The notes under the pieces: generated by a model
What the model saw: the letters and a program-made list of their open reading frames with translations, nothing else
What the model was told of the DNA's origin: nothing
Databases searched by the model: none
Program-made: the position numbers and the translations under genes
NCBI GenBank assembly: GCA_017443405.1
Contig: JAFRXS010000208.1
Coordinates: 625 to 64,624 of the forward strand
From: Clostridia bacterium
Lineage (GTDB): Bacteria; Bacillota; Clostridia; Oscillospirales; Acutalibacteraceae
Reading direction: 5' to 3'
DNA length: 64,000 nucleotides
Shown here: piece by piece, positions 21,939-52,550 of the stretch
Position numbering within the stretch: position 1 is the stretch's first letter
Layout of the letters: each line of letters starts with the position of its first letter

Positions 21939-22728
21939 TTATCTCATCTCCGTGGAAATACGTTCCTATGCTGTGGCCGTCAAAGAGCTTGTAGATATCG
22001 TCAGGGTCGGCGCCGTTCATCAGCACGGTGTCTATCCCTGCCTCAGCCGCGCTTTTCACCGCGCTGAGCTTCGTGACCATGCCGCCCGTGCCGCGCGTAG
22101 AGCCGGCGGAGCCCGCGGAATCGAGCATCTCCTCCGTCACACGGCGGACGTCGGTTATCAGCCGGGCGTCCTCGTCCGTCCTCGGGTCGGCGGTATAAAG
22201 ACCGTCGATATCGCTGAGTATCACGAGAGCGTCGGCGTTTATCAGCTTCGCGACCGTGGCGGAAAGATTGTCGTTGTCGCCGAAAACTATCTCCTCGACC
22301 GCGATGCCGTCGTTTTCGTTGATGACGGGTATAACGCCGTAGGAGAACATCTTCTCGAAGGCGTTGATGAGGTTCGTGCGCCTTTCGTCGTTTTCGACGT
22401 CGCTGCGCGTCATGAGCAGCTGACCTATGTTCTTGCCGTACTCGAGAAACGCCTTGTCGTACATATATATCAGCTCGCACTGACCGATACAGGACGCCGC
22501 CTGACGCGAGCGCGTGTCCTCCGGGCGTTTTTCGAGGCCGAGCTTGCTGACTCCGACCGCTATGGCGCCCGAGGTCACGAGTGCTATGTCGAGCCCGCGG
22601 TTGGAAAGGTCCGACAGGACCCTCGCGAGCGCGCGCAGACGGCGGATATTCGGCTTGTGGTTCTCGTAGGTCAGGGTCGAAGTGCCGACCTTAAATACTA
22701 TACGGTGTTTTTTCTCAAACTGATTCAT
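21931..22728 (-). CDS. proB: glutamate 5-kinase (short form without PUA domain)
   Basis: RIVFKVGTSTL, VTSGAIAVG, IPVINENDG and GTGGMVTKL are typical ProB amino-acid-kinase motifs. At 265 aa the protein has no room for a PUA domain. Confidence 0.85.
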   Translation of the reverse strand: MNQFEKKHRIVFKVGTSTLTYENHKPNIRRLRALARVLSDLSNRGLDIALVTSGAIAVGVSKLGLEKRPEDTRSRQAASCIGQCELIYMYDKAFLEYGKNIGQLLMTRSDVENDERRTNLINAFEKMFSYGVIPVINENDGIAVEEIVFGDNDNLSATVAKLINADALVILSDIDGLYTADPRTDEDARLITDVRRVTEEMLDSAGSAGSTRGTGGMVTKLSAVKSAAEAGIDTVLMNGADPDDIYKLFDGHSIGTYFHGDEINA

Positions 22729-25183: not shown

Positions 25184-26042
25184 AGCACAGCCCCTTGAGG
25201 TTCGCCTGTATCGCCCGCGCGATCTCCGGCTTGTTCATAGTGTAGAGATGTATCCTGTCGACGCCGTTGGCGACGAGCTCGAGTATCTGCTCCGTCGCGT
25301 AGATTATCCCCGCGCGTTTCATGCTCTCGGGGTCGGAGCCGAAACGGTCGAGCAGGGAAGTGAACTTGCGCGGCAGCGCCGTGCCGGTCATATCGCGCGT
25401 GCGGATGATCTGCTTTACGTTGGTTATCGGCATTATGCCGGCGAGCACCGGGACGGTTATCCCCGCCTCGCGGATCTGATAGAGGAAGTTATACATGATG
25501 TTGTTGTCGAAGAACATCTGCGTCGTCAGAAAATCGCAGCCGGAATCGACCTTGATCTTCAGGTTTTCTATGTCCTTTTTCCTGTTCTCGCACTCGGGAT
25601 GCCCCTCGGGGTAGCAGGCGGCGCCCACGCAGAAATCGCCCTTTTCCCTGATGAACGGGATGAGCTCGCTCGTGTGCGCGAAAACGCCGGGCTCCTTTAT
25701 GCCCTCGCGCGGAACGTCCCCCCTGAGCGCCATGATATTCTCTATCCCCGCCGACTTCATCTCGTTTATCTGTCGTTCGAGCGCTTCGAGCCCTGAGCCT
25801 ATGCAGGTCATGTGCGCGAGAGCGGGCACTCCGTACTCGTTCTGGATGCGCGACGCGATCTCCGTCGTGTTGCGGCTGTTCGAGCCTCCCGCGCCGTAGG
25901 TCACGCTCATGAAGGCGGGCTTCAGCGCGGCTATCCCGAGAGCGGCGGCAGTCACGCCGTCGTGCCTGTCGTCGTTTTTCGGCGGAAAGACCTCGAAGGA
26001 AAGAAGAGGTCCGCCGGTGGAAAACAAGTCGGTTATTTTCAT
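25170..26042 (-). CDS. metF: 5,10-methylenetetrahydrofolate reductase
   Basis: LSFEVFPPK, TYGAGGS, HMTC, IENIMALRGD and CYPEGHPE are typical MetF blocks. Confidence 0.85.
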   Translation of the reverse strand: MKITDLFSTGGPLLSFEVFPPKNDDRHDGVTAAALGIAALKPAFMSVTYGAGGSNSRNTTEIASRIQNEYGVPALAHMTCIGSGLEALERQINEMKSAGIENIMALRGDVPREGIKEPGVFAHTSELIPFIREKGDFCVGAACYPEGHPECENRKKDIENLKIKVDSGCDFLTTQMFFDNNIMYNFLYQIREAGITVPVLAGIMPITNVKQIIRTRDMTGTALPRKFTSLLDRFGSDPESMKRAGIIYATEQILELVANGVDRIHLYTMNKPEIARAIQANLKGLCFDDV

Positions 26043-26164: not shown

Positions 26165-26193
26165 TTGACTTGTGAGCTTATATATGATATAAT
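26165..26193 (+). promoter_or_regulatory. consensus sigma-A promoter heading locus operon 1
   Basis: TTGACT (26165-26170), 17-nt spacer, TATAAT (26188-26193). It sits about 60 nt upstream of the ATG at 26253, which has an AAGAAGG RBS. Confidence 0.65.
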
Positions 26194-26252: not shown

Positions 26253-27764
26253 ATGGGTTTGAGAGTATTACTGTTTAACGCGAATTTCAACGCGGAGACA
26301 TTGACATATGCAAGAATGAGCGGGTTGCCCCTCGGTGTCATGTCGATTGCGACCTATCTCAATAAAAACGGGCACGAAGCTTTTTTTGTCGACCGCTTCT
26401 ACGACTCGACCCCCCTTGACGAGCTGACCCTGCGCTATTCCCCCGACGTCGTCGGCATCGCGCTTATGTCGGACACGATGCTTCTCGACACGATGCGTTT
26501 AGGCGAGTATTTCAGGGACAATGGCGTACCCGTCGTTATCGGCGGAACGCACGCGTCCATTATCCCCGAGATGCTCATCCGCGAGGAAAAGGCGGATTAC
26601 GTGGTGATCGGCGAGGGGGAGCAGACCTGGCTCGAGCTCGCGGACGCGCTTCGCGACGGCGCCGACCCGCGTAAAGTCCCGGGGCTTTATTATTCCGACG
26701 GCGGGGAGCCTGTGTTCTCCGGTCAGAGAGAGCATATCGATCTTTCCGCTCTGGGGCCGACCGATTTTACCCTCGTGCCGGACGTCAGCAGGTATTTCCA
26801 GTCGGTCTATTTCTACGACAAGATGCTATACCTGTATATGTCGAAGGGCTGCACAGGAACCTGCCGCTTCTGCTTCAACCCCTATTTCCACCGCTGTCAG
26901 CGGCGCGTACGCCCGGTAGAACACCTTTTCGGCGAGATAGAGTATCTGATCCGAGAGTGCGGGCTGAAGACGGTTTATTTTGCCGACGAGCTGTGGGGGC
27001 TTACCCGAAGCGAGCGCGAGAGCTTTTACGCCGAGAAGAAAAGGCGCGGACTCGATTTCGTCTGGGGCTGTCAGACGCGTATCGGCGTGCTGAAACGCGA
27101 CGATATAAAAGAAATGCACGAAAACGGCTGCCGCTGGATAATGTTCGGCGTCGAGGCGCCGCCCGGCAAGCTCGAAAAGCTCGTAGACAAGCGTATCCCC
27201 TATAATCTTATCCAGCCCACGCTTCTCGACTGCCGCGCCGTGGGGATGATAACGAATATCTCGTTTATCATCAATTATCCGTTTACCGAAGAGCAGGATC
27301 TGAGGGATACGGTCTCGTTCGCGAAGACGCTTACCCCGACCTATATCAGCTTCCATTATTACGTTCCCCTTGAAAAAAGCGAGCTTTACGACATCATCGT
27401 GGAAAACGGCATGTACAAGCCGCCCGAAACGCTTGACGAGATGTCGCGCCGCTTTTTGTGGGAAACGGTAATTCCCGAGTTTTCCGACGTTCCCGAGATC
27501 GATTTCAGGGTCGTGCGCGGCTCGTTCCAGCTGAAATCCCTGCTCACCCGCACACCGCGCAGCTATTCCGGCGGGAAATCGTTTATCGTCGAGGCGGTCA
27601 AGAGCGTTCTGCTGAACCTCGGCGCGGGGACGTTCAGGACCCGGGTGACCGGCTTCTTTTATACCGCCAAATACTTTTTCGACACGGTCGGGAGCGTGTT
27701 GCTGCATCCGCGCATAAGAAAAAAATACGGTCTGGAGATCGGCTATATCTTACGCAGCGCGTAA
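26253..27764 (+). CDS. B12-binding-domain radical SAM protein, short class (rSAM-A1)
   Basis: The N-terminal Rossmann-like cobalamin-domain pattern is LRVLLFNAN...PLGVMSIATYLNKNGHEAFFVD...PDVVGIALMS...VPVVIGGTHAS. The 4Fe-4S motif is SKGCTGTCRFC (CxxxCxxC). It is a paralog of 48932..50416(-) and 60051..61517. Confidence 0.8.
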   Translation: MGLRVLLFNANFNAETLTYARMSGLPLGVMSIATYLNKNGHEAFFVDRFYDSTPLDELTLRYSPDVVGIALMSDTMLLDTMRLGEYFRDNGVPVVIGGTHASIIPEMLIREEKADYVVIGEGEQTWLELADALRDGADPRKVPGLYYSDGGEPVFSGQREHIDLSALGPTDFTLVPDVSRYFQSVYFYDKMLYLYMSKGCTGTCRFCFNPYFHRCQRRVRPVEHLFGEIEYLIRECGLKTVYFADELWGLTRSERESFYAEKKRRGLDFVWGCQTRIGVLKRDDIKEMHENGCRWIMFGVEAPPGKLEKLVDKRIPYNLIQPTLLDCRAVGMITNISFIINYPFTEEQDLRDTVSFAKTLTPTYISFHYYVPLEKSELYDIIVENGMYKPPETLDEMSRRFLWETVIPEFSDVPEIDFRVVRGSFQLKSLLTRTPRSYSGGKSFIVEAVKSVLLNLGAGTFRTRVTGFFYTAKYFFDTVGSVLLHPRIRKKYGLEIGYILRSA

Positions 27765-27778
27765 GAGGGAGACAGGAT

Positions 27779-29695
27779 TTGAGCAAAAGAAGGGTCTATC
27801 TGTTCCAGCCCACGTTTATGACGGGGTCTGACGTATATCTGCCGTACGCCATAGGCGCGCTGGCGTCATACGCATGGAAATTTGACTCCGTCCGCGATAA
27901 TTACGAGCTTGCCGGGGCTTTCTTCCTGCGCGAACCCGTAGACGACGTATTCGACAGGGTCGGGGACCCCGACGTCGCGGCTTTCAGCTGCTACATGTGG
28001 AATTACGAGTACAACAAGACCCTCGCTTCGCGTATCAAACGGAAATACCCCGAATGCTTCATCATCTTCGGCGGTCAGCAGGTCGCGCCCGGAGAGGGGG
28101 TCCTCGAGGAGTGTCCGTTTGTCGACGCGATCATCCACAATGAGGGCGAGATACCCTTCCGCGAGCTGCTCGAATGTCTCGCGGCCGGCGGCGACCCCTC
28201 GGAGGTCGGTTCGCTTTCGGTGAGGACGCCTCACGGCATCGTGACGACTCCGCCGTCGAAGAACAGGGATTTTGACTTTCCGTCGCCTTATCAGAGCGGT
28301 TTCTTTGAAAGCATCATCAAAAGATATCCCGATTTGAATTTCGTTCCCCTTGTGGAGACGAACAGGGGCTGCCCGAACAAATGCACGTACTGCAGCTGGG
28401 GCAGCATGAAGGCGGGAGTCAGGCTGTTCCCTATGTCGAGGGTCATGTACGATATAGAATGGTGCAGCAGTCACGGGCTTAAGTATCTCGTCATATCCGA
28501 CGCGAATTTCGGGATCATCCCGCGCGACGAGGAGATAACCGACAGAATAGTCGAGCTCAAAAAAAACACCGGCTGCCCCGAAAAGTTCCAGGTGTCCTAC
28601 ACTAAGGACTCCAACGACCGTGTTTTCAGGATAACCGAAAAACTCAACGCCAATAAGATGGACAAGGGAGTTACGCTGTCCTTCCAGACGATGTCGCCTA
28701 TCGTTCAGAAGAACATCGGCAGGGAAAACATAGATCTGGAAAGCTACAAGGCGCTGCTCAAAAGATATTCCGACGCAGGCATCCCGACTTATACCGAGCT
28801 TATCCTCGGACTTCCGGGCGAGACAGTCGAAAGTCTCACCGACGGCATAGAAGAACTGCTTGAAATGGGGCAGCACGTGGCGTTTTTCGTGCATATGTGC
28901 GAGTGGCTGCCCTGCGCCGAAATGGGAAACCGCGAGTATATGGAAAGATTCGGTCTCAAGTACAGCACGATACCGATAAACAGGGCGCATACCGCAAAAG
29001 GCTCCGGCGACGACATTCCCGAGTATTCGAGGATAATCACCGCGTCGTCGTCCATGTCCTCCGACGACTGGATACAAATGAACCTCATCTCCTACTGCGT
29101 CATCTGCTTCCATCATCTGGGGCTGCTGCAGTGTTTCGCGCTTTATCTCTACCGCGAAAAAGGCATAAGATACGTCGATTTCTATTCCGATCTGCTGAAA
29201 TACCTTCTTGAGAAGGATAACGGCGCGGCGCCGGTGTTCCGCTTTATCCGCGAGAGGCTCGCGGGGATCGTCAACGGCGAGGCGTCAGCCATCTGCTTCG
29301 ACGACAGATTCGGAGACGTCGCCTGGACGTTCGAGGAGTACGCGTATCTTACGGTCGTCGCCGAAAAGGATGAGTTTTATAAGGCCGTCGGGCCGTTCCT
29401 TAAAAAGTACGTCGGAAACGACGGCATATGCGACGAGATACTCCGGTATCAGTCGTTCATTATGAAATCCGTCGGCGATACCCGCCGCGAGTTCACCGGT
29501 ACGTACGACTGGAATAAGTATTTCGTCGCCCTGCGCTCCGGAAAGGACGCCGCGCTTGATAAAAGACCGGTCAGGTACGCGGTCAACGATCCGTCCGCCG
29601 TTCCCTCGTGGGACAGGTACGCCGTCGAAGTAATGTGGTACGGCAGAAAAGGCGGAAAGAACATTTATACCAACGAGATAGAATATGTCGGATGA
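27779..29695 (+). CDS. B12-binding-domain radical SAM protein, long class (rSAM-B1)
   Basis: ORF 27458..29695. The 5' 107 codons overlap the upstream gene and are Arg-rich nonsense. The TTG at 27779 follows GGGAGACAGGA. Supporting sequence: DVAAFSCYMWNYEYNKTLASRIKRKYPECFIIFGGQQV and ETNRGCPNKCTYCSWG. It is a paralog of 30407 and 32335. Confidence 0.8.
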   Translation: MSKRRVYLFQPTFMTGSDVYLPYAIGALASYAWKFDSVRDNYELAGAFFLREPVDDVFDRVGDPDVAAFSCYMWNYEYNKTLASRIKRKYPECFIIFGGQQVAPGEGVLEECPFVDAIIHNEGEIPFRELLECLAAGGDPSEVGSLSVRTPHGIVTTPPSKNRDFDFPSPYQSGFFESIIKRYPDLNFVPLVETNRGCPNKCTYCSWGSMKAGVRLFPMSRVMYDIEWCSSHGLKYLVISDANFGIIPRDEEITDRIVELKKNTGCPEKFQVSYTKDSNDRVFRITEKLNANKMDKGVTLSFQTMSPIVQKNIGRENIDLESYKALLKRYSDAGIPTYTELILGLPGETVESLTDGIEELLEMGQHVAFFVHMCEWLPCAEMGNREYMERFGLKYSTIPINRAHTAKGSGDDIPEYSRIITASSSMSSDDWIQMNLISYCVICFHHLGLLQCFALYLYREKGIRYVDFYSDLLKYLLEKDNGAAPVFRFIRERLAGIVNGEASAICFDDRFGDVAWTFEEYAYLTVVAEKDEFYKAVGPFLKKYVGNDGICDEILRYQSFIMKSVGDTRREFTGTYDWNKYFVALRSGKDAALDKRPVRYAVNDPSAVPSWDRYAVEVMWYGRKGGKNIYTNEIEYVG

Positions 29696-30410
29696 TTACA
29701 GGCTCTCGGTGCTCATCTGCGCCGTAGACGAGACGGAGTCCCTTGAAAAATGCGTCGCTCAGCTGAGGGACGCCGTGGACGCTTACGAATACGTTTTTGT
29801 TCTGTCGCGCGACTGTCTGCCCGAAACGAGGCGGACCGTACTGCGCTTATGCGAGGCGCCGGACTGCAGATACCTTGTCCAGGATTCCTACGGCTACGGC
29901 AACGCGATAAGAAACGGCATAGCCGCTACGGCTGGCACGCATATGCTCATGTGGACCGCGGACGGCGGGCTCGACGTGTCGTCGGTGCCGGAGATGAAAA
30001 GGATATCCGAGAGCGACCCGAAAAATATAGTCAAGGTCAGCAGATGGTTGCCCGGCGGCGGCTTCGTGAACTACGGAAGGTTAAGAAAGATCGCGAATTA
30101 TCTGTCGCAGAAGGCATTCGCCGTTCTGTACGGCGTAAAGCTCACCGACTTTACGAACGGGGCGCTAATCGCCCCCCTCGACTTATTCAAAAACATCAGA
30201 TGGGACAATAAGGATTTCTCCTTCGTTCCCGAAATGATATTCAAGCCCCTGCGCCTCGGCGTGCGTTTCACTGAGGTGCCGTGCGTCAACTACGAGCGCC
30301 GCGAGGGCGTCTCGCACGTGTCCTTCGCCCATCTCGTAAAGTATTATCTGGTCATATTCAGGATCAGATTCGAGGACAGATCGAAATTGATCTTAAACTC
30401 CGGTAAATGA
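29685..30410 (+). CDS. family-2 glycosyltransferase, soluble DPM1/Ppm1-like type
   Basis: LSVLICAVDETESL (GT-A N-terminus), YGYGNAIRNG and WTADGG (DxD-like). There are no TM helices. The gene overlaps both flanking rSAM genes. Confidence 0.7.
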   Translation: MSDDYRLSVLICAVDETESLEKCVAQLRDAVDAYEYVFVLSRDCLPETRRTVLRLCEAPDCRYLVQDSYGYGNAIRNGIAATAGTHMLMWTADGGLDVSSVPEMKRISESDPKNIVKVSRWLPGGGFVNYGRLRKIANYLSQKAFAVLYGVKLTDFTNGALIAPLDLFKNIRWDNKDFSFVPEMIFKPLRLGVRFTEVPCVNYERREGVSHVSFAHLVKYYLVIFRIRFEDRSKLILNSGK

Positions 30411-32338
30411 AAAAACTCTGTTTCGTTCAGCCTAATAACGCGTACGGCGGGTCGTATTATTTTCCCTACGCCTGCGGCTGTCTCGCCGCGTACGCTTACT
30501 CCGACGAACGGATAAGAGCGTCTTACGGAAAACCGGTATTCTTCTACAGGCGCGATCCCGTCGACGAAGTGCTCGACAGGATGGAGGGCGTCGACGTCGC
30601 GGCGTTTTCGTGCCTCGTTTACACGTTCGAGTACAATAAAGCGCTCGCGAAGAAAGTCAAGGAGAGATACCCCGGCTGCGCCGTTGTTTTCGGCGGTCAC
30701 GTGATCTCCGACAATTACGACGTTTTCCCGGAACTGCCTTACGTCGATTACCTCGTTTACGGCGAGGGCGAGCGGGCGTTCAGGGACGTGCTGGACTGCA
30801 TAGACGGCTTGCGCGATCCGCATTCGGTGCCGAATATCGCTTTCCGCGACGGCGGGCGCATAGTCAAAACGCCGCGCGAATACCCGGACTCTCTCGACGA
30901 CCTCCCGTCGCCGTATCTCACGGGCATGTTCGACGGCATAATAGAAGAGGATCCGGACGCGCTTTTCTCCGCGTCGGTCGAGACGAACAGGGGCTGTCCC
31001 TACGGCTGCGCGTACTGCGACTGGAGCTTCACTAAAAAAATACGGGCGTTCCCGATAGACCGGGTCAAGCGGGAGATAGACTGGTTCGGCAGGCACGGTA
31101 TAGACTACGTTTTCTGCACCGACGGCAATTTCGGCATACTCGAGCGCGACGTCGAGATCGCGCGTTTCGTCTGCGAAACGAAGAAAAAATACGGTTTTCC
31201 GCATATTTTCAACGCGGACTACGCGAAAAAGAGCAACGACAGGGTCTTCGATATCTCCCGTATGTTTTTCGATCTGGGACTCACAAAGGGAGTCACGCTG
31301 TCTTTCCAGTCGGTCAACGAACAGGCGCTCAAAAACATCGGCAGGGAGAATTTTTCGCTCGACGAGTTTTCGCGGCTGATAAAAAAATACAACGAGTACG
31401 GCATCCCGACTTACACGGAGATGATACTCGGCCTGCCCGGCGAAACGCGGGACAGCTTCTGCCGCGGACTTTGCGACCTGATAGAATCCGGGCAGCAGAA
31501 CGCGATATCTGTTTTTTCCTGCCAGGTCTATCACAACGCCGTTATGGGGGATCCGGACTACCGGCGGCGCTTCGGGATAAAGACCGCGCACGTGCCCCAG
31601 AACATCTGGCACAGGAGCGTGCAGGAGGACGATATCGCCGAATATACGGACGTCGTCGTCGAGACCGCGACGATGCCGTTCGAGGATACTCTGCGGTGCC
31701 TTATGTTCACCGCGTGCCTCCAGTGTTTCCATAATATCGGTCTTCTCAAGTTTTTCGCGCTTTACCTCAGATATGAGAAAAACGTGAGTTATTACGGTTT
31801 CTACTCGGCGCTGTTTGAATATATACTCAACAGCGAAGGGACGCTCCTCAACTCGATATTCCGCAGGCTCATCTCGGAGTGCAGGGAGTTCAAATACGGC
31901 GAGTGGTCGTATTTCGACCCGAGGTTCGGCGATATCGGCTGGTTCATGGAGGAGGGCGTTTTTATGGAAACGGTCTGCTCTTTCGACCGGTTCAGCCGCG
32001 AGATAACGCCTTTCCTCAGTAGTTTCGGCGTCGCGCCCGACGTATTCGGAGAGCTCCTGCGTTATCAGCGGTTCACTCTTTTGATGCCGGGGATGACTCG
32101 CGCGAGCGCCGAATTCGACTACGACTTCTACTCCTATTTCAACCGCGCGCTCATAGGCGAGCGCAGCCGTCTTGAAAAAAAACGGACCCGGATAAGCGTT
32201 AAGATCGCCGAGCCCGTATCCGACTGGAAGGAATACGCCCTGAAGATAATGCTTCGCGGAAAGAAAAAGGGCAGACCGCTGATCGTAAACGACAGGGAGA
32301 ACGTAGAGATCTCTTACCCGAATGGTGAAGGACAATGA
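30407..32338 (+). CDS. B12-binding-domain radical SAM protein, long class (rSAM-B2)
   Basis: DVAAFSCLVYTFEYNKALAKKVKERYPGCAVVFGGHV and ETNRGCPYGCAYCDWS. ATGA overlaps occur at both ends. Confidence 0.8.
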   Translation: MKKLCFVQPNNAYGGSYYFPYACGCLAAYAYSDERIRASYGKPVFFYRRDPVDEVLDRMEGVDVAAFSCLVYTFEYNKALAKKVKERYPGCAVVFGGHVISDNYDVFPELPYVDYLVYGEGERAFRDVLDCIDGLRDPHSVPNIAFRDGGRIVKTPREYPDSLDDLPSPYLTGMFDGIIEEDPDALFSASVETNRGCPYGCAYCDWSFTKKIRAFPIDRVKREIDWFGRHGIDYVFCTDGNFGILERDVEIARFVCETKKKYGFPHIFNADYAKKSNDRVFDISRMFFDLGLTKGVTLSFQSVNEQALKNIGRENFSLDEFSRLIKKYNEYGIPTYTEMILGLPGETRDSFCRGLCDLIESGQQNAISVFSCQVYHNAVMGDPDYRRRFGIKTAHVPQNIWHRSVQEDDIAEYTDVVVETATMPFEDTLRCLMFTACLQCFHNIGLLKFFALYLRYEKNVSYYGFYSALFEYILNSEGTLLNSIFRRLISECREFKYGEWSYFDPRFGDIGWFMEEGVFMETVCSFDRFSREITPFLSSFGVAPDVFGELLRYQRFTLLMPGMTRASAEFDYDFYSYFNRALIGERSRLEKKRTRISVKIAEPVSDWKEYALKIMLRGKKKGRPLIVNDRENVEISYPNGEGQ

Positions 32339-34245
32339 AAAAGCACGTTTATTTTGTTCAGGTGGGCTTCGAATTCGACGGAGCGGTGTATCTTCCGTAC
32401 GCCGCCGGCGCAATGATCGCTTACGCGCGGACCGTACCTGAGATAACGGATAATTACGATTTCCCGGATATCATCTATATGCGGGAAAAGCTCGCCGACG
32501 CGCTCGAAAAGATAAAGGACCCCGCCGTCGTCGCTTTCTCCTGCAGCGTATGGAATATCGAATACAACAAGGAGCTGGCGAGGCGCGTAAAGGAGCGATA
32601 TCCCGACTGCGTCATCTGCTTCGGCGGTCACAGCGTGCTTGAAAACGGCGAACTCCTCTCTCAGGCGGAATATATCGACATCCTGACCTTCGGCGAGGGC
32701 GAGCAGACGATGACGAACCTGATGCTCAATCTCCTTCACGGAGAGCCAGAAAAAACAAAGAACGCTGCTTTCCGCAGGGGCGGGGAGACGATCTGCACCG
32801 AGAGGGAGTATTACTACGACATTTCGAATTATCCCTCGCCCTATCTGACGGGCGAGTTCGATGAGCTCATGAGCAAAAAGACCGACGTCGAATGGCTGAC
32901 GGTGCTCGAGACCAACCGCGGCTGCCCGTATTCCTGCGCGTACTGCGACTGGACGGGCGGGCGTCGCATGCGCTTTTTCCCGATCGAGAAGGTGCTGGGC
33001 GAGGTCACGTGGCTCGCGGAGCATAAGGTGACCTACTGCTTCTGCGGCGATTCGAATTTCGGTATGTACGACCGCGACGTCGATATCGCGGATTTTATAG
33101 TCGAAACCAAGAAGAAATACGGCTACCCGCAGGTCTTCCGGCCCTGTTACGAAAAGAACAGCGAGGACAGAGTCTTCCGTATCTGCAAGGCGCTCAACAG
33201 CGTCAAGCTCGACAAGGGCGCGACATTCGCCTATCAGACGCTTTGTGACGAAGCGCTTAAAAACATCGGCAGGAAGAATCTGACGATGGAGCATTTCTCC
33301 GGGCTCATGAAAAAATACAACGAGGAGGGCATACCGTCTTATTCGGAGCTCATCCTCGGACTTCCGGGCGAAACGCTGGACAGCTTCTGCCGCGGCATTT
33401 GCCGCCTGCTTGAAAACGGCCAGCACAATTCGCTTTCCGTCTACTACTGCGAGGTGCTTCCGAATTCCCGTCTTGCAGAGCCGGACTATATAAAACAGCA
33501 CGGCATAGACATCATAAGGGTCGCGTTCAACCATCTGCACAGCGCCCCGGGCAAAGACGAGGAGGTAAAAGAATACTCTAACCTCGTCCGGGCGACGGCC
33601 TCGATGAGCCGCGACGACTGGACCGCGTCGAACCTGTTCTCGATATGCGTGCAGGTGTTCCACAGCCTCGGCGTGCTGCGCTGCTTCGGTATGTATCTGC
33701 ACAGCGAGGGCGGCATGAGCTACTACGATTTTTACGGCAGTCTGCTCGAGTTTATCCAAAACTCCGACGGCAGGCTCCATTCCCTTTGGGAGAGCTTCAA
33801 GAACAAGTACGATCACTCGCTCGAGGGCGACTGGAACTATTACAACGAAAAGTTCGGCAACGTGACCTGGTTCTTCGAGGAAGGCGCTTTCATAGAGATA
33901 GCCGACGAGCCCGATCTGTTCTACGGGGAACTGAAGCCGTTCCTCGATTCCCTCGATATGGAGCCGGAGCTTAAAAATCAACTGCTGCGCTATCAGCGGC
34001 TTATCCTGAGGATGCCGGATTCCTCGCCGAGGACGGAGACCTTCGACTGGGATTTCCATTCGTTCATCAACGCGGTATTCCGCAGCGAACCGGCTAAACT
34101 GGTCAAAAAGAAGACAAGGGTGAGCATAAAGCCCGAAATGCATTTCAGGGATATCGCGCAGTACGGCAAGGAAGCCGTCTGGTGGGGCAGACGCCGCGGC
34201 GACACGATGATCTCAAACAGGGAAATGACGGTAGAATATATCTGA
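32335..34245 (+). CDS. B12-binding-domain radical SAM protein, long class (rSAM-B3)
   Basis: AVVAFSCSVWNIEYNKELARRVKERYPDCVICFGGHSV and ETNRGCPYSCAYCDWT. Confidence 0.8.
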   Translation: MKKHVYFVQVGFEFDGAVYLPYAAGAMIAYARTVPEITDNYDFPDIIYMREKLADALEKIKDPAVVAFSCSVWNIEYNKELARRVKERYPDCVICFGGHSVLENGELLSQAEYIDILTFGEGEQTMTNLMLNLLHGEPEKTKNAAFRRGGETICTEREYYYDISNYPSPYLTGEFDELMSKKTDVEWLTVLETNRGCPYSCAYCDWTGGRRMRFFPIEKVLGEVTWLAEHKVTYCFCGDSNFGMYDRDVDIADFIVETKKKYGYPQVFRPCYEKNSEDRVFRICKALNSVKLDKGATFAYQTLCDEALKNIGRKNLTMEHFSGLMKKYNEEGIPSYSELILGLPGETLDSFCRGICRLLENGQHNSLSVYYCEVLPNSRLAEPDYIKQHGIDIIRVAFNHLHSAPGKDEEVKEYSNLVRATASMSRDDWTASNLFSICVQVFHSLGVLRCFGMYLHSEGGMSYYDFYGSLLEFIQNSDGRLHSLWESFKNKYDHSLEGDWNYYNEKFGNVTWFFEEGAFIEIADEPDLFYGELKPFLDSLDMEPELKNQLLRYQRLILRMPDSSPRTETFDWDFHSFINAVFRSEPAKLVKKKTRVSIKPEMHFRDIAQYGKEAVWWGRRRGDTMISNREMTVEYI

Positions 34246-34287
34246 TTTTCGGTACCGGTTTCGTAATGAAGAGCTGAGCCCGTTCTT

Positions 34288-35544
34288 ATGAAGAAAATGA
34301 TCGGCAGGTACAGATACGGCGCGTGGATATTCCTCCTCGGGGGGATATACGCGTTCGTTTTCCCCGGAGCTCTCGCGCCGTGGCGTGAGGGCGCCGTTCC
34401 GTATGTCTTCTATCTTGTCGACTACAGTATGGGCTTCTGCACGCGGTTTCTGCCCGGGGCGGTATACAAGCTTCTTATCGGCGTATACACGCATGAAGCC
34501 GAGACCGCGTTCGTCATCGTTCTCCAGACGCTGTTTTTCGCCGCTGCGTCCCTTGTGTGCGGAAGGCTCGTGTCGCGCGTCGAGTCCGAAAACCGGCCCT
34601 GCGTCCTCCTGCTTCTGTTTTTCCTATTTACGGGACCGTATTCGCTTTCGATATTCAGCGCGACGCCCGGCATGCTCGATTTTTACTGGCTTCTTTTTTC
34701 TTTTGCGGCGGTCCTTTTGATCGCGAACAAAAAGACGGTATGGCTTGCCGTCCCGTTTTTCGCGCTTCTTATTCTCGTCCATTACGCGTCTGTTTTTACC
34801 TATATCCCGCTTCTCGCTCTGCTGCTTCTTTATAAGGCGGTCTATTCCCCGGGCGGGAGCGAAAGACGGACGTACGTTGCCGTGCTTGCCGTTTCTCTCG
34901 CGCTTGCCGCCGGGCTGTTTGTGTATTTCGTTCTGTTCGAGCGCAGCAATCTTACTTACCCGCTCGAAGAATTTGCGGAAATACTCTATTCCCGCGGGGC
35001 CGGAAAGGGAATGGATGTATATTATGATTACGTTCTCTACCGCGATCTTATTGACCCGGAGACGAAAGCGCGAATGGCGGCGGAAAAGGGGCTGACCGAT
35101 TTCGGCGGCGACGCCTCCGCGCTTACCGGTGGATTGGCTGGCCTTATCCGCGTCGTTCTGCAGCAGATCGGCTCGACCGTCGTGCTGTGGGACCTTGACG
35201 GCAAGGTGCCCGCCATGCTGATCTCTCTGCCCGCGGCCGCTCTGCTTTTTGTCTTCGTGTTCTATATTGTAAAAAAAGAACACGGTTTTATGAAAAGGCT
35301 CGCGCTCGTCGGCGGACCGCTCGTTTATCTGCTTGCCGCCGTCGGAGGCTGCCTGTTCTCGAGCGATATCAACAGATGGCTCTCGCACGCCTTCGTCGCG
35401 CTTTTCGTTTTCGTCCTTTTCCTGATGAACGAGCGGCGCGGCTGCGAAGCGTTTTTTAAAAAGGCTTTCAAACGCCTGCCCTCGGTCCTGATCTTCGCCT
35501 ATATGTTCATATACGCTGTCACGGTGGTGGCGCCTTATGACTGA
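34288..35544 (+). CDS. polytopic membrane protein, tandem paralog 1 of 4 (unknown family)
   Basis: About 10 TM helices. Shared motifs are VDYSMGFCTRFLPGAVY after TM1, TGPYS, GMLDFYW, HYAS and SSDINRWLSHA. Confidence 0.6.
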   Translation: MKKMIGRYRYGAWIFLLGGIYAFVFPGALAPWREGAVPYVFYLVDYSMGFCTRFLPGAVYKLLIGVYTHEAETAFVIVLQTLFFAAASLVCGRLVSRVESENRPCVLLLLFFLFTGPYSLSIFSATPGMLDFYWLLFSFAAVLLIANKKTVWLAVPFFALLILVHYASVFTYIPLLALLLLYKAVYSPGGSERRTYVAVLAVSLALAAGLFVYFVLFERSNLTYPLEEFAEILYSRGAGKGMDVYYDYVLYRDLIDPETKARMAAEKGLTDFGGDASALTGGLAGLIRVVLQQIGSTVVLWDLDGKVPAMLISLPAAALLFVFVFYIVKKEHGFMKRLALVGGPLVYLLAAVGGCLFSSDINRWLSHAFVALFVFVLFLMNERRGCEAFFKKAFKRLPSVLIFAYMFIYAVTVVAPYD

Positions 35545-36814
35545 GAAGATGATAACAAAGACGTCCGCGTTGAAAAAGCTGATATCGCGCCGCAGGTACT
35601 CCCTTTTCATCTTCGGTTTTCTTCTTGTTTATTCTTTCATCGTTCCCGGGGAGCTGAAGCCGTGGCGCGAGGGCGCGGTCGTTTACGCCTTCCACGCGGT
35701 GGATTACGGCATGGGCTTCTGCTCGAGATTCCTGCCCGGGGCGATCTACGGCGCCCTTATCGGTAAATACAATGAAACTGCGATGACGGTATATGAGCTC
35801 GTTTTGCTCGTGCTGTTTTTCCTGCTCGTTTCGCTGATGCTCGAAGGCGTGCTCAAGAGAGTAAAGGATAAGGACCGTCCGTATGTCGCTGTCCTGATGT
35901 TTTTCCTCCTTACGGGACCCTACGCGCTGCCGATCTTCGCGAGAAGGCTCGGTATGCTCGATTTTTACTGGGCGCTGTTCTGCATCCCCGTCGTGTTCTG
36001 TCTTTCGAACAGAAAACTGTACTTTTTCGCCGTCCCGTTTTTCGCGCTGCTGATATTGACGCACTACGCGGCGATACTCAATTACGTTCCGCTTTTGCTG
36101 CTTATGACGCTTTATAAGCTGGCGTGCGCGGACGAAAAAAAAGAAAAAGCGGCTCTCGGCGCGGTTTTCGCTCTTTCTCTCGCGGTCTCCGTCGGGCTCA
36201 CGCTGTATTTCGTATTGCACGAACGGGAAAACCTCGTTTATCCGATGGACGAGTTCGCGCGGCTGCTCATTTCACGGGGAGTCGACTCGCGCGAGGGGCT
36301 TTACTATGATTACGTCCTGTACCGCGACGTTTACGATCCCGAGCTCAAACAGTATTTCGCCGAAAAATACTCCTTCGACGTTTTCGGTATGACGGACGGG
36401 AGCGCCCCGTCTGTCGTCCGGCAGCAGATAATATCGAGTCTCGGGCGTATCGATCTCTCGGATAAGATACCTCAGCTGCTCCTGTCGGCTCCTGTCGCCG
36501 CGCTGTTGTTCTCATTCGTCGTAACTGAGATCAAAAAGCGGGACGGTCACTTGAAAAAACTCGTCCTTTGCTGCGTTCCGATCCTGTTCGTCGTCGCTTT
36601 CGCCGGCGGGTGCTGTTTCTCGACCGACGCCAACAGATGGGCGGCGCACGCGCTTATAGGTCTTTTCGCGTTCGTCCTGTTCGTCATACACGAAGAAAAA
36701 GGCGATCCGGCGTCTTATTTCCGCGAAGTCTTTTCGCGCGTTCCCGTGCGCCTGCTCGTCCTTTATATGATCATATACTGTCTGAAGGTTGCGGAACCCT
36801 ATGAATCCTCTTGA
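35537..36814 (+). CDS. polytopic membrane protein, tandem paralog 2 of 4
   Basis: VDYGMGFCSRFLPGAIY, TGPYA, GMLDFYW, HYAA and STDANRWAAHA. An 8-nt ATGACTGA overlap links it to paralog 1. Confidence 0.6.
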   Translation: MTEKMITKTSALKKLISRRRYSLFIFGFLLVYSFIVPGELKPWREGAVVYAFHAVDYGMGFCSRFLPGAIYGALIGKYNETAMTVYELVLLVLFFLLVSLMLEGVLKRVKDKDRPYVAVLMFFLLTGPYALPIFARRLGMLDFYWALFCIPVVFCLSNRKLYFFAVPFFALLILTHYAAILNYVPLLLLMTLYKLACADEKKEKAALGAVFALSLAVSVGLTLYFVLHERENLVYPMDEFARLLISRGVDSREGLYYDYVLYRDVYDPELKQYFAEKYSFDVFGMTDGSAPSVVRQQIISSLGRIDLSDKIPQLLLSAPVAALLFSFVVTEIKKRDGHLKKLVLCCVPILFVVAFAGGCCFSTDANRWAAHALIGLFAFVLFVIHEEKGDPASYFREVFSRVPVRLLVLYMIIYCLKVAEPYESS

Positions 36815-38078
36815 GCCGGGACTCAAAAAACAGAATATAATAAAGCGTCACAGGTTTTTTATCGCCGCTTTTGTTGTTCTTATGCTTTACTCCGCGATCC
36901 CTGCGGGCTTCAAGCTCTGGAGCGTCGACGAAAACACTTTTATCTTCCATACCGTGGATTTTTCTCTGGGGTTCTGTACCCGCATGCTGCCCGGCGCGAT
37001 CTACGGACTGTTTTTCCCCGAGCGCTCTCCCGAAACGGCGAGCCTATTCGACAGCGTCATGCTCGTACTTCTGTTCCTGATGACCGCGTATCTCTGCGAA
37101 AAGCTGCTGCTTTCCGTCGGAGCCGGGGCAAGATCCGCGACGGCGACAGCGCTGCTGTTCTTCCTTACCGGACCCTGTACCTTCTCGATATTCGTCAACA
37201 GGCTCGGGATGATCGATTTTTACTGGATATTCTTCTCAGCCGTCGCGTTGATACTGCTTGAAAAAAAACGTCTCGTTTTCGCTGTTGTGCCGATCTTCTT
37301 CCTGCTCGTCCTCAACCACTACGCTTCTGTGATGGATTATATCCCGTGGCTGTGGATGATAATGCTGTACAAGATATTCTGCACGGAGGATAAAAAAGAG
37401 AAGAAGACCCTGTGGATCGTTCTGGCGCTGTCGGTCGCGGTCGCCGCCTCATCTTTCCTGTATTTCGTTATGTACGACAGGAACAATCTCGTTTATTCGC
37501 AGGAGGAGTTCGACAGCATACTGCTTTCGCGCGGCGCGGTCGATACGTTCTATTATGATACGGGGCTTTACCGCGATCTGCATAACGTTCTTGACGAATC
37601 GCACATTCAGACCGTCGAGGGGGGAATGTCCGGGGTCGGTTCGGCGCTGGCGTCGGTCCTGCAGCAGCTTCAGATCAGTTTGCAGGAAGCTCACCCTTAT
37701 ATTTTGCTGCCCCCGCTTATCGTGATCCTTCCCTGCCTTCTGGTATTATTAAGTTTTGTTGTTTCGCGGCGCCTCAGTGAAGAGAACAGAGGTAAAAAGC
37801 TGCTGCTGACTGTTTCGCCGATACTGTTTTTGCTGTCGATCGCCGGCGAGTGCCTGCTTTCGACCGATCTCATCAGATGGCTTGACCACGCTTATATATG
37901 TTTCTTTGCCTTTATCCTGTACGTTGTCTATAAGGAGAAGGACGCGTGCGCGGATCATTTCAGGTCGGTCTTTGATAAGGTGCCCGCGCCTTCGTGTTTC
38001 GTGTATTTTCTGTTCTATACGTTCGCCGTCTTCGATCCTTATATCGACGGCGTAGGCACTGTGTTCTGGACGTCATGA
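36801..38078 (+). CDS. polytopic membrane protein, tandem paralog 3 of 4
   Basis: ORF 36789..38078, with an ATG at 36801. Motifs: VDFSLGFCTRMLPGAIY, TGPCT, GMIDFYW, HYAS and STDLIRWLDHA. Confidence 0.6.
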   Translation: MNPLEPGLKKQNIIKRHRFFIAAFVVLMLYSAIPAGFKLWSVDENTFIFHTVDFSLGFCTRMLPGAIYGLFFPERSPETASLFDSVMLVLLFLMTAYLCEKLLLSVGAGARSATATALLFFLTGPCTFSIFVNRLGMIDFYWIFFSAVALILLEKKRLVFAVVPIFFLLVLNHYASVMDYIPWLWMIMLYKIFCTEDKKEKKTLWIVLALSVAVAASSFLYFVMYDRNNLVYSQEEFDSILLSRGAVDTFYYDTGLYRDLHNVLDESHIQTVEGGMSGVGSALASVLQQLQISLQEAHPYILLPPLIVILPCLLVLLSFVVSRRLSEENRGKKLLLTVSPILFLLSIAGECLLSTDLIRWLDHAYICFFAFILYVVYKEKDACADHFRSVFDKVPAPSCFVYFLFYTFAVFDPYIDGVGTVFWTS

Positions 38079-39328
38079 AAAAAGCTTTTGTCAAGCACCG
38101 GTACTCGGTCGGCGTATTCGCGTTCCTGCTGCTGCACTCTTTTCTCGTGTCGGGCGGAGCGAAGCCGTGGAGCAACGATTTTGTGACCTACTCGTTCCAC
38201 GCCGTGGATTTCTCCATGGGCTTCTGCACGCGCATACTGCCCGGAGCGGTGTATAAGCTCCTTGTCGGAAAATGGAGCATGGAAGCGGTCAACGCCTTTG
38301 ACTCCGTTTTTATGATACTGCTTTTCGCCGTTCTTTCCGTTTTCTGTGAGAAGCTCATCCTCGGCGTCGGGAAAAAAGACAGGCTCGCTTTTCTGCTTGT
38401 GGTACTGCTGTTCCTGACCGGTCCGTGCACCTTCCCGATGTACATTATCGAGCTCGGGATGATAGACGTCTGGTGGGTGTTCTTCACCGCCGCGGCGGTC
38501 GTTCTGCTGTCGTGCAGACGCCTGTTTCCGCTGGTTGTCCCGATAGGCGCTCTGTGCGTTACGATACACTTTTCGGCTATGTACACCTTCGTTCCGCTCA
38601 TAGTTCTGCTTATCCTATATAAATGTGCTTCGGAGCAAAATAAGAAAACAAAGGCTGCGCTTTTCTCCGTCGCCGTCCTTACGGCAGCGGCAGCCTGCGC
38701 GACGGCTGTCTACTTCCTTGTAAACGAAAAGAACAACCTCGTCTATACCCGCGAGGAGTTCGACGCCGTACTCGCTTCGCGCGGCGTGACGTTTTTCGAT
38801 TATTACGATTACGCTTTTTACGGTTTTATCTCGGACGCGCAGCCGCGCCTCGTGGAGGCGATGTCGTCATCGGAACCGGTATCTTTTATCCAGCGTGTCA
38901 TGCAGCAGATCAGCATTAATGCTTCCACTCTGGAATTCGCCACAAAGCTGTACGTACTCGTTCTGATGATCCCCGCCGTCGTTCTGCTTTTCGGATTTGT
39001 CTTTACTGCGGTGAAGGGCAGGAGCGGCAAAGCCGAAAAAGCCGTATTGCTTTCAGCTCCCGCGCTGTTCGTCGTCTCACTCGGCTTCGGCTGGCTGTTT
39101 TCGACTGACGTGATCAGATTCCTCGGTCACAGCTTCCTCGGTTTGTTCACATTCGTTATGTTCGTTATTTATATCGATAATAAAGACAGGAACGCGGAAA
39201 ACGGTCCGTCCGAAAACAAAGATCCCGCGTCGTATTTTACCGATGTTTTCCGGCGTATAGATCCGAAAATAACGTTCATTTACTTCGCGATGTACGTTTT
39301 GACGGTATGGGAACCGTACAGGACATAA
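38075..39328 (+). CDS. polytopic membrane protein, tandem paralog 4 of 4
   Basis: ORF 37994..39328. The ATG at 38075 (MKKAFVKHRYS) forms an ATGA overlap with the paralog 3 stop. Motifs: VDFSMGFCTRILPGAVY, TGPCT, GMIDVWW, HFSA and STDVIRFLGHS. Confidence 0.6.
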   Translation: MKKAFVKHRYSVGVFAFLLLHSFLVSGGAKPWSNDFVTYSFHAVDFSMGFCTRILPGAVYKLLVGKWSMEAVNAFDSVFMILLFAVLSVFCEKLILGVGKKDRLAFLLVVLLFLTGPCTFPMYIIELGMIDVWWVFFTAAAVVLLSCRRLFPLVVPIGALCVTIHFSAMYTFVPLIVLLILYKCASEQNKKTKAALFSVAVLTAAAACATAVYFLVNEKNNLVYTREEFDAVLASRGVTFFDYYDYAFYGFISDAQPRLVEAMSSSEPVSFIQRVMQQISINASTLEFATKLYVLVLMIPAVVLLFGFVFTAVKGRSGKAEKAVLLSAPALFVVSLGFGWLFSTDVIRFLGHSFLGLFTFVMFVIYIDNKDRNAENGPSENKDPASYFTDVFRRIDPKITFIYFAMYVLTVWEPYRT

Positions 39329-39342
39329 GGCAGGTGTCAGGC

Positions 39343-43067: not shown

Positions 43068-43069
43068 TC

Positions 43070-52547: not shown

Positions 52548-52550
52548 CAG

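Follow-up and report, generated by a model that had tools for sequence, protein, structure and literature searches.

A TokK-like radical S-adenosylmethionine enzyme cassette coupled to a soluble glycosyltransferase in a putative envelope-glycan operon of a gut Oscillospirales bacterium

Within a 64,000-nucleotide stretch of DNA from an uncultured gut Oscillospirales (Clostridia) bacterium (GenBank assembly GCA_017443405.1, contig JAFRXS010000208.1, positions 625 to 64,624 of the forward strand; this whole stretch is the window referred to below), we analyzed three paralogous radical S-adenosylmethionine (SAM) enzymes, B1, B2, and B3, and a small family 2 glycosyltransferase (GT2), GT2s, whose gene is wedged between those of B1 and B2. 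The best explanation of the region is that it is the core of a cell-envelope glycan-tailoring operon. In the mechanism that we propose, a nucleotide- or lipid-linked sugar would undergo radical C-methylation and would then be exported to the envelope, a proposal on which our confidence is evenly balanced. The link to an envelope glycan had been suggested in a preliminary description of this DNA, and it is strengthened here by conserved synteny with nucleoside diphosphate (NDP)-sugar genes, with GT-C-like membrane proteins, and, in one lineage, with the dlt operon.

Three TokK-like enzymes in a tightly packed operon

GT2s shares 11 nucleotides (nt) with B1 and 4 nt with B2, and B2 and B3 overlap by a further 4 nt (Table 1); B1 starts with a TTG codon at 27779, and a GAGGGAG ribosome-binding site lies 8 to 12 nt upstream of it. 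B1, B2, and B3 occupy places 2, 4, and 5 in an operon of 11 genes (26253 to 41078, plus strand) in which every junction lies between −26 and +42 nt and which reads, in order, sRS_a, B1, GT2s, B2, B3, M1a to M1d, Mx1, and Mx2. The arrangement of three paralogous radical SAM genes with a GT2 lacking transmembrane (TM) segments wedged among them, as first described, is borne out by the open reading frames and by pairwise BLASTP (B1-B2, 39.6% identity, E = 6e-162; B1-B3, 36.3%, E = 2e-159; B2-B3, 42.0%, E = 0), a similarity well above anything expected by chance. The sequence motifs said to unite the three proteins are likewise all present, with small amendments. Each protein carries GLPGET and ETNRGCP..C.YC.W, the latter holding CxxxCxxC and reading ETNRGCP(N/Y)xC(T/A)YC, and the basic tails of the three paralogs are WYGRKGG, LRGKKKG, and WWGRRRG; the N-terminal motif is better written Y(L/F)PYA.G, with YFPYA in B2, and B3 reads VAFSC where AAFSC had been given.

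Pfam recognizes Radical_SAM in all three proteins (41 to 65 bits; gathering score, 29.5) and B12-binding (PF02310) at 28.5, 32.8, and 34.2 bits in B1, B2, and B3 (gathering score, 32.1), B1 being slightly under. The best PDB sequence match of each (phmmer) is TokK (7KDX), which covers query residues ~5 to 586 (B1, E = 2.7e-90, residues 19 to 583; B2, E = 1.4e-104, residues 18 to 586; B3, E = 4.1e-88) at 32 to 35% identity over 577 to 599 BLASTP columns (35% for B2); the cobalamin (Cbl) domain of TokK aligns from residue about 20 on. CysS (9N1B) is the second-best match (E = 1e-44 to 8e-58; B2, 8.5e-49; B3, 7.7e-58), and the top NCBIfam model is that for KedN5 (NF033712), a family of C-methyltransferases that depend on methylcobalamin; the three proteins score 222, 243, and 244 bits with it, not reaching its cut-off of 700, over model positions ~15 to 399 of 624. 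The GenK-, GenD1-, and Fom3-type subfamilies are not among the significant matches of B1 to B3. The CxxxCxxC motif, the Pfam matches, and the homology with TokK support the earlier assignment of B1 to B3 to the cobalamin-type (class B) radical SAM enzymes, their use of cobalamin being predicted.

These alignments also account for the C-terminal extension of about 250 amino acids (aa) to which the preliminary description had drawn attention. The extension is indeed conserved (the C-terminal 240 aa alone are 31 to 36% identical among B1 to B3, E = 1e-44 to 1e-56), but it is no novelty: because B1 to B3 match TokK end to end, it is equivalent to TokK's C-terminal domain, the substrate-binding domain of the TokK/ThnK/CysS clade. 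The authors of the TokK study termed this domain unique to TokK and showed that the Cbl and C-terminal domains form a tunnel holding the pantetheinyl tail of the substrate (10.1101/2021.07.10.451909). TokK, ThnK, and CysS fall together at a single node of the class B sequence network, and all three methylate sp3 carbons in successive rounds; the characterized members of the clade are all methylases (10.1101/2021.07.10.451909).

Two tryptophans, Trp76 below the corrin and Trp215 between Cbl and the cluster, shape the cobalamin site of the radical methylases TokK, ThnK, and CysS and mark their clade (10.1101/2021.07.10.451909; PMC12931638). The W76 position is Trp, Tyr, and Trp in B1, B2, and B3, respectively, and the W215 position is Trp in each; both equivalents are almost invariant across all orthogroups of 206 family proteins (see below), and CxxxCxxC is found in 206 of the 206. 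The substrate residues of TokK fare differently. At the R280 position, B1 has Gln, B2 has Asn, and B3 has Arg; the Y410 position holds His in B1 to B3, as in virtually all of the 206 family proteins; and B1 to B3 have a deletion in the N515 region. Because R280, Y410, and N515 are replaced in this way, B1 to B3 would not be carbapenam methylases, and their substrate would differ. The invariant His is a candidate for a family-specific active-site residue that TokK lacks. By the terms of the preliminary description, its proposal would fail if the proteins fell within a characterized subgroup unrelated to glycans. They come near to this without reaching it: their nearest characterized relatives do tailor antibiotics, but at only 32 to 35% identity and with the substrate contacts replaced. 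We therefore predict that B1 to B3 work like TokK-type radical methylases and are not carbapenam, cystobactamid, or kedarcidin enzymes.

Two other readings were considered and rejected. The overlapping genes leave no space for the precursor peptide of a ribosomally synthesized and posttranslationally modified peptide system, for which TIGR03975 also scores low, and duplication during assembly is excluded as the source of the paralogs by their 36 to 42% identity.

A soluble glycosyltransferase resembling polyprenyl-phosphate sugar synthases

GT2s matches PF00535 at 35 bits (gathering score, 23.3), and a Kyte-Doolittle scan found no hydrophobic segment in it. Word-index protein searches returned 17 matches for GT2s and 8 for the membrane protein M1, which made the alignments for structure prediction shallow; the AlphaFold2 model of GT2s obtained from the 17-sequence alignment has a mean predicted local distance difference test score (pLDDT) of 90.6 and a predicted template modeling score (pTM) of 0.89. 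Its top Foldseek match is the dolichyl-phosphate mannose synthase of P. furiosus, PfDPMS (5MLZ; query-based template modeling score [TMq], 0.80; E = 2.5e-13), and PfDPMS and ArnC fill ranks 1 to 11 (E = 2.5e-13 to 1e-9; TMq, 0.66 to 0.80), with GtrB appearing from rank 20. PfDPMS is also the sole PDB sequence match of GT2s, a weak one (E = 0.037).

We mapped the residues of PfDPMS (PMC5526996) onto GT2s through a HMMER alignment and the family alignment. Glu12, the metal ligand Asp91, and Arg117, which binds the acceptor phosphate, correspond to E16, D93, and R120, all invariant in the GT2s family. The other acceptor phosphate residues, Arg131 and Ser135, correspond to R134 (Arg or Lys in the family) and N138 (invariably Asn), Phe177 is retained in the window protein as F178, and Arg202, which forms the A-loop pair with Glu12, is matched by the nearly invariant R205. 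The kept acceptor-site residues support a phosphate-bearing acceptor, short of proving that it is polyprenyl phosphate. For the pair of GT2s helices aligned to the interface helices of DPMS, the hydrophobic moment gave no discrimination.

The family to which GT2s belongs is discrete: a profile search of 1.84 billion representatives found 202 members at E ≤ 1e-30, nearly all of 230 to 265 aa and without TM segments. A few relatives are fused to other domains, namely, a GT87 GT-C domain (P0202), an MprF-type LPG_synthase_TM domain (P0189 and P0286), and the cupin of the cassette (P0162). The GT87-GT2 fusion lies beside two short-chain dehydrogenase/reductase (SDR) genes and an RGP-type (UDP-arabinopyranose mutase-like) gene (locus L083, 1283 to 6548), and the GT2-cupin fusion lies beside ManC, SDRs, and a Glf-like flavoprotein (locus L085, 4946 to 13387). 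Fusions and sugar-nucleotide operons of this kind provide good indirect evidence that the GT2s family makes polyprenyl-phosphate sugars for extracytoplasmic GT-C enzymes. With the Foldseek matches to PfDPMS, ArnC, and GtrB, the kept residues, and the GT87 and MprF fusions taken together, the earlier likening of the GT2 to Ppm1 and DPM1 holds in the sense that it probably works like them. The L083 and L085 fusions may themselves represent polyprenyl-phosphate-furanose pathways outside a radical SAM context.

Orthogroups and gene order in related loci

When one genome per GTDB species was scanned by pattern, at least 595 stretches encoding such proteins turned up, and the locus counts given here rest on the best 80. 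All 80 are metagenome-assembled genomes of Acutalibacteraceae, Ruminococcaceae, Oscillospiraceae, or unclassified Clostridia, largely from the ruminant gut to judge by record titles and isolate names. Each locus has 1 to 6 TokK-like genes within ±10 kb (median, 3), and the 206 TokK-like proteins cluster into 17 groups at ~45% identity, with B1 in T14, B2 in T8, and B3 in T9. Identity to positional orthologs is 50 to 53% for B1, 49 to 52% for B2, and 59 to 63% for B3, compared with 36 to 42% among the paralogs. The residue at the R280 position, where TokK anchors its substrate, follows the orthogroup: it is Arg in 44 of 45 T9 proteins, Lys in 34 of 36 T10 proteins, Arg in T1 and T2, Gln in T14, T15, and T16, and Asn in T8. 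Because the paralogs are less alike than the positional orthologs and the anchor residue is group specific, B1 to B3 would seem to be old and functionally differentiated and not recent duplicates; the orthogroup-fixed residue and the closer positional orthologs point to distinct, conserved sub-functions.

Of the 80 loci, 52 have GT2s, which in 35 is no more than 200 bp from a TokK-like gene, and T14 and T8 travel with it. T9 is present in 44 loci, of which 29 have NDP-sugar genes and only 16 have GT2s; it directly adjoins or follows a gene for a nucleotidyltransferase-phosphatase fusion in 13 loci and adjoins M1 in 10. B3 is thus a module apart from B1-GT2s-B2, probably acting close to the nucleotide-sugar stage.

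The other neighbors that recur in these loci include M1, a protein of ~415 aa with 11 TM segments that follows B3 in the window (21 to 31 loci), an HddA-like GHMP kinase (164 bits; 26 loci), a 121-aa cupin (25 loci), an HddC-like nucleotidyltransferase fused to a GmhB-like HAD phosphatase (24 loci), a GalE/RmlB-like SDR (23 loci), and a 2-hydroxyacid dehydrogenase (10 loci). Short (~490 aa) B12 radical SAM proteins recur as well, in 35 loci and in up to 8 copies per locus. The loci of closest synteny, L005 and L073, have a single operon with gaps of no more than 63 nt (SDR-cupin-T14-GT2s-T8-T5-T9-M1-x-SDR-GHMP kinase), from which the nucleotidyltransferase-phosphatase gene is divergent; the window keeps the order T14-GT2s-T8-T9-M1 and is without T5 and the sugar-activation genes. 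In sister loci M1 is followed by a ~260-aa membrane protein (c8), to which none of the window proteins corresponds.

In L003 (3760 to 13863) and L004, GT2s-T8-T5 is immediately preceded on its own strand by dltA (split), dltC, dltB, a dltD-like gene, and an acyltransferase-3 gene, a neighborhood that points to D-alanylated teichoic-acid-type polymers. L002 (5371 to 17910) has an uninterrupted run of six TokK-like genes behind GT2s, together with three short radical SAM genes and GtrC-like (GT_STM0557_N) proteins, and other extreme expansions (L016, L018, and L025) have 5 to 8 short radical SAM genes. The degree of radical tailoring would be larger than the preliminary description stated, with six B12 radical SAM genes in the island and up to 6 long and 8 short ones in related loci.

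Other genes accompany particular arrays. Divergent T4/T9 pairs have beside them, upstream, genes for an Fe-S carrier ATPase of the NUBPL/Mrp type and for a C_GCAxxG_C_C redox protein (L066, L070, and L078), and behind T15-T6-T9 or T6-T9 arrays comes a gene for a DUF218 (ElyC/SanA-like) protein (L060, L063, and L045).

Membrane proteins, short radical SAM proteins, and neighboring operons

The four tandem M1 paralogs are 35 to 49% identical to one another and share an invariant Asp45 in the first loop after TM1. M1 has no Pfam or NCBIfam match and no PDB match at E ≤ 1 in a profile search. Its AlphaFold2 model (pLDDT, 78.5) has GT-C proteins at all of Foldseek ranks 1 to 4 (PglB, DPY19, and AglB), matches of high probability (0.95 to 1.0) that are yet weak (E = 0.01 to 0.13; TMq, 0.41 to 0.43), and AftA at rank 22. 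For Mx1 and Mx2, which end the operon, no family match was found in Pfam or NCBIfam. The M2 paralogs of the adjoining operons have an invariant Asp-Glu pair (D47 and E48), also in the first loop after TM1 (...IDE...GDRLLIDEWHVSQ...); they have no match in Pfam, NCBIfam, or the PDB (profile search, E ≤ 1), and hhalign comparisons of M2 with the GT_STM0557_N (GtrC-like) protein of L002 and with M1 were not significant.

Radical SAM genes of a second type were overlooked in the preliminary description: one (sRS_a, 26253 to 27764) ends 14 nt upstream of B1, and two more lie further along the island. sRS_a matches Pfam B12-binding at 61.7 bits as well as Radical_SAM and is 21 to 25% identical to B1 to B3, whereas sRS_a, sRS_b, and sRS_c are 32 to 36% identical to one another and have a common C-terminal ...FP.I.KKYGL tail. 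The best PDB match of their profile is the glutamine C-methyltransferase QCMT (9CCB; E = 2e-30), and the dehydratase AprD4 is nearly as good. Each of the island's three operons has one such gene as its first or its last, and the island in all contains six B12 radical SAM genes, two GT2 enzymes that resemble polyprenyl-phosphate glycosyltransferases, and ten polytopic paralogs.

Table 1. Features of the glycan island, with positions in the window
Feature	Coordinates	Strand	Description
Promoter-like site	26165-26193	+	TTGACT, 17 nt, TG-TATAAT; ahead of the 11-gene operon
sRS_a	26253-27764	+	503 aa; short B12-binding radical SAM protein, operon gene 1; family differs from that of B1 to B3
B1	27779-29695	+	638 aa; TokK-family enzyme, predicted cobalamin-dependent radical SAM, orthogroup T14
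GT2s	29685-30410	+	241 aa; predicted DPMS/ArnC/GtrB-like polyprenyl-phosphate glycosyltransferase catalytic domain, without TM
B2	30407-32338	+	643 aa; TokK-family enzyme, predicted cobalamin-dependent radical SAM, orthogroup T8
B3	32335-34245	+	636 aa; TokK-family enzyme, predicted cobalamin-dependent radical SAM, orthogroup T9 (most widespread group)
M1a, M1b, M1c, M1d	34288-35544, 35537-36814, 36789-38078, 38075-39328	+	Four tandem paralogs, ~415-425 aa, ~11 TM
Mx1, Mx2	39307-40173, 40173-41078	+	Polytopic, 7-8 hydrophobic segments each
M2a-M2c	41145-46862	-	Three paralogs, 635-651 aa, ~12 TM and a C-terminal soluble domain
DegT/PseC-type sugar aminotransferase	46864-47976	-	PF01041, 362 bits; NCBIfam PseC 239 and ArnB 199 bits, both under cut-off
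Anchored GT2	47966-48916	-	316 aa; membrane-anchored GtrB/PgfS/ArnC-like; PF00535, 67.6 bits; TM segments at 232-295
sRS_b	48932-50416	-	Pfam B12-binding and Radical_SAM; heads minus-strand operon; 34% identical to sRS_a and sRS_c
M2d-M2f	54499-60054	+	Three further M2 paralogs, 615-622 aa; 26-28% identical to M2a, same invariant columns
sRS_c	60051-61517	+	Third short B12-binding radical SAM protein; 36% identical to sRS_a

The convergent operon (50416 to 41145, minus strand) consists of sRS_b, the anchored GT2 (NCBIfam PgfS, 145 bits, and ArnC, 92 bits, both under cut-off), the PseC/ArnB-like aminotransferase, and M2a to M2c, and it repeats the logic of the B1-B3 operon with a short radical SAM protein, a GT2, an aminotransferase, and polytopic proteins. 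The third operon (50535 to 61517, plus strand) is headed by tandem CotH-kinase-domain proteins (50535 to 54461), each with a terminal Listeria-Bacteroides repeat, and continues with M2d to M2f and sRS_c. The CotH-kinase pair suggests extracellular phosphorylation tied to the same surface structure.

The promoter-like site ahead of the 11-gene operon was the top hit of the region scan, with 11 of 12 matches and an extended −10 element, and is a match to consensus alone. An Rfam scan of the whole window for a cobalamin or SAM riboswitch gave no match. The gene for methylenetetrahydrofolate reductase and that for the B12-dependent methionine synthase MetH lie at 22715 to 26042 on the minus strand, divergent from the promoter of the radical SAM operon; that they adjoin genes for six enzymes consuming SAM and B12 would suit a high demand for methyl groups, although coincidence is possible. 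Between 26001 and 50000, the island has a G+C content of 0.52 to 0.55, versus 0.62 in the upstream metH region, and its membrane-gene stretches have a strongly negative AT skew (i.e., they are T-rich). Both properties fit a variable or horizontally exchanged surface locus. Elsewhere in the window, a 736-aa protein (10563 to 12773, plus strand) combines a CHAP amidase with a type I dockerin and so joins a domain for cell-wall hydrolysis to an anchor of the cellulosome type.

Discussion

From the families, folds, orthogroups, synteny, and operon structure observed here, we infer a substrate, a methylation chemistry, an order of steps, and an acceptor. The pathway would start with the supply of a nucleotide sugar, for which sister loci would use the HddA-like kinase, the GmhB-HddC-like fusion, the SDRs, and the cupin. 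At the cytoplasmic face, GT2s would then act in the manner of DPM1, Ppm1, ArnC, and GtrB and load the sugar onto polyprenyl (undecaprenyl) phosphate. B1 to B3, each with a [4Fe-4S] cluster and cobalamin, would methylate unactivated sp3 carbons of the sugar, with one SAM yielding the 5'-deoxyadenosyl radical and a second re-methylating cob(I)alamin. Each paralog would take a different position or intermediate, and B3 may already work on the nucleotide sugar. Finally, the modified lipid-linked sugar would be flipped and put on a surface polymer by the GT-C-like M1 paralogs.

A bolder form of this proposal is possible, though we consider it doubtful: gut Oscillospirales may have recruited and massively expanded TokK/CysS-type iterative methylases to make, on nucleotide or undecaprenyl-phosphate carriers, sugars that are C-methylated and perhaps also ethyl-, isopropyl-, or chain-extended, which GT-C enzymes would place on teichoic-acid-like or other wall polymers, and the at least 17 orthogroups in 80 loci would then yield a strain-specific surface chemistry. 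If true, this would add a new class to the known modifications of bacterial glycans.

Several points weigh against the sugar-methylation pathway. All of its functional links rest on homology and gene neighborhood. The characterized relatives of B1 to B3 (TokK, ThnK, and CysS) tailor small-molecule antibiotic precursors and not sugars, and because the substrate residues of TokK are not kept, the active site identifies no sugar. Residue 72 of B2, at the TokK W76 position, is Tyr, where 12 of the 13 members of orthogroup T8 have Trp. As T9 is common without GT2s, the three enzymes need not share one substrate. None of the NDP-sugar genes of the sister loci (GHMP kinase, nucleotidyltransferase-HAD fusion, cupin, SDR, and 2-hydroxyacid dehydrogenase) was found in the window by tblastn. 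With regard to GT2s, GpgS, whose phospho-acceptor is soluble, is also a good structural match, so that GT2s may use an acceptor of that kind, and the scores are far under equivalog cut-offs (AglJ TIGR04182, 38 versus 325 bits; the dolichyl-phosphate-hexose transferase NF041391, 30 versus 375 bits), which makes GT2s a relative of those equivalogs and not a member. The DxD region (DADLQH in PfDPMS) reads T91-A92-D93-G-G-L, so that the equivalents of Asp89 (T91) and Gln93 (G95) are lost, as is that of Lys178 (S179); in DPMS, the first Asp of the DxD motif contacts the mannosyl group and D91 binds the metal (PMC5526996). The weak links on the export side are the membrane proteins: the Foldseek matches of M1 are suggestive of a GT-C-like fold and are weak, and M2 may be an undescribed GT-C-like family, by inference alone.

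The density of membrane proteins in the island would also suit a pathway in which B1 to B3 alter the polyprenyl carrier, a membrane lipid, or a glycolipid, with the GT2 adding a head group. B12 radical SAM enzymes figure prominently in the tailoring of lipids, as in hopanoid HpnP/HpnR and the glycerol dialkyl glycerol tetraether enzyme Grs (PMC13459092), a tunnel like that in which TokK holds a long pantetheinyl tail (10.1101/2021.07.10.451909) could accommodate an isoprenoid chain, and the short radical SAM proteins weakly match the HpnJ, BchE, and ladderane-lipid models of NCBIfam. Yet B1 to B3 themselves score only 35 to 62 bits with hopanoid and lipid models, versus 222 to 244 for KedN5, there are no recurrent lipid-synthesis genes near the cassette, and in many genomes T9 lies directly in one operon with genes for a sugar kinase, a nucleotidyltransferase, an SDR, and a cupin, often without the GT2; we find a lipid substrate unlikely on this evidence. 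That the closest characterized enzymes all tailor antibiotics raises another prospect, namely, that the cluster makes a methylated small-molecule glycoside (an aminoglycoside-like or glycolipid antibiotic), comparable to the products of TokK, ThnK, CysS, KedN5, and GenK. Several methylases per cluster do recall the alkyl "libraries" of carbapenems and cystobactamids, and a sugar aminotransferase is nearby. However, neither the window nor the recurrent neighbors include polyketide synthase, nonribosomal peptide synthetase (NRPS), carrier-protein, cyclase, resistance, or exporter genes; what recurs is GT-C-like polytopic proteins, the dlt operon, and GtrB/PgfS-type GT2s, and the presence of at least 595 species-representative stretches within one order is more like a lineage-wide envelope trait. 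An antibiotic product therefore strikes us as improbable.

The chemistry could differ as well as the substrate. Reactions of class B radical SAM enzymes are diverse (PMC12931638), and some or all of the paralogs might carry out epimerization, ring contraction, dehydration, or C-C bond formation on a sugar, as in OxsB, BchE, and AprD4; the invariant His at the TokK Tyr410 position, the Tyr in place of Trp beneath the corrin in B2, and the three short radical SAM proteins that match the diol dehydratase AprD4 nearly as well as QCMT could all be read in this way. We give this little credence, as the full-length best matches, TokK and CysS, are radical methylases, and the W76 and W215 residues typical of those enzymes are kept (PMC12931638). 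Very improbable, in our judgment, is that the three genes are duplicates or phase-variable alternatives of one reaction and represent no multistep tailoring. Alternative paralogs are frequent in glycan loci, and M1 (four copies) and M2 (six) are multiplied here too, but B1 to B3 are old paralogs (36 to 42%) with closer positional orthologs (50 to 63%) in a conserved gene order, they differ by orthogroup at the substrate-anchor position, and their genes are translationally coupled, with no invertible or repeat elements separating them.

The sugar-methylation pathway would join parts that are already known, the TokK/ThnK/CysS clade and the type of GT2, in a combination for which we found no precedent: in the literature searched, which left subscription journals outside, there was no report of a TokK-type methylase translationally coupled to a polyprenyl-phosphate glycosyltransferase or of an expansion of this clade in envelope loci of gut Clostridia, and searches on TokK-like or cobalamin radical SAM enzymes with teichoic acid, polysaccharide, heptose, or undecaprenyl, and on KedN5, returned nothing relevant. 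Radical B12-dependent methylation of unactivated carbons has so far been known mainly in antibiotic, cofactor, lipid, and protein-modification pathways. If the proposal is true, C-alkylated sugars would be present in the surface glycans of an entire order of Clostridia that are abundant in the gut and rumen and mostly uncultured, and standard glycomics would miss or misassign these sugars. Such a modification would be costly, as each methyl group would consume two SAM and the enzymes would also need cobalamin, for which there is competition in the gut, and its maintenance would imply strong selection, for example, for the evasion of phages, host lectins, or glycosidases. The family also provides many natural TokK-like enzymes whose residue at the anchor position depends on the orthogroup, a large set for studying how site selectivity and iterativity are programmed, and the system is directly testable in that the small GT2 should supply the substrate.

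Comparison with known systems

B1 to B3 resemble TokK and ThnK, which alkylate C6 of carbapenems (7KDX and 7KDY), in their Cbl Rossmann domain, radical SAM barrel with CxxxCxxC, and large C-terminal domain, with ~590 alignable residues. They differ in the equivalents of the TokK substrate contacts R280, Y410, and N515, for which B1 to B3 have Gln/Asn/Arg, His, and a deletion, and in context: TokK and ThnK are each encoded by one gene of a β-lactam cluster in Streptomyces, whereas the genes studied here stand among envelope-glycan genes of an anaerobic Firmicute, with 1 to 6 paralogs per locus. CysS, which extends the alkoxy group of cystobactamids (9N1B), and KedN5 belong to the same clade of sequential sp3 C-methylases; unlike their clusters, the B1-B3 loci have no aromatic-acid or NRPS context, and KedN5 aligns only over the N-terminal ~390 residues. 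A precedent for cobalamin radical SAM C-methylation of carbohydrate carbons, such as C6' of gentamicin, is provided by GenK/GenD1/Fom3-type enzymes, although these are of other class B subfamilies and serve antibiotic pathways and not envelope glycans.

GT2s shares with DPMS/DPM1/Ppm1, GtrB, and ArnC the GT-A catalytic fold and the equivalents of E12, D91, R117, R131, F177, and R202, and the window, with a GT2 followed by polytopic GT-C-like proteins, is organized like the GtrABC, CsbB-YfhO, and PgfS-PgfM systems of extracytoplasmic glycosylation. Unlike the DPMS, GtrB, and ArnC systems, GT2s has no TM domain (as is the case for eukaryotic DPM1 and the catalytic domain of Ppm1) and has Thr-Ala-Asp for Asp-x-Asp. 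It is also translationally coupled to radical SAM enzymes, a coupling that none of the DPMS, GtrABC, CsbB-YfhO, and PgfS-PgfM systems is known to have. The sister loci, for their part, depart from GDP-heptose cassettes (HddA, GmhB, and HddC) in scoring under equivalog cut-offs and in having no GmhA-type isomerase that we could see, but they have in common with them an HddA-like kinase, a GmhB-HddC-like fusion, SDRs, and a small cupin, here within a TokK-like operon, and their SDR and cupin presumably compare with heptose tailoring of the Campylobacter type.

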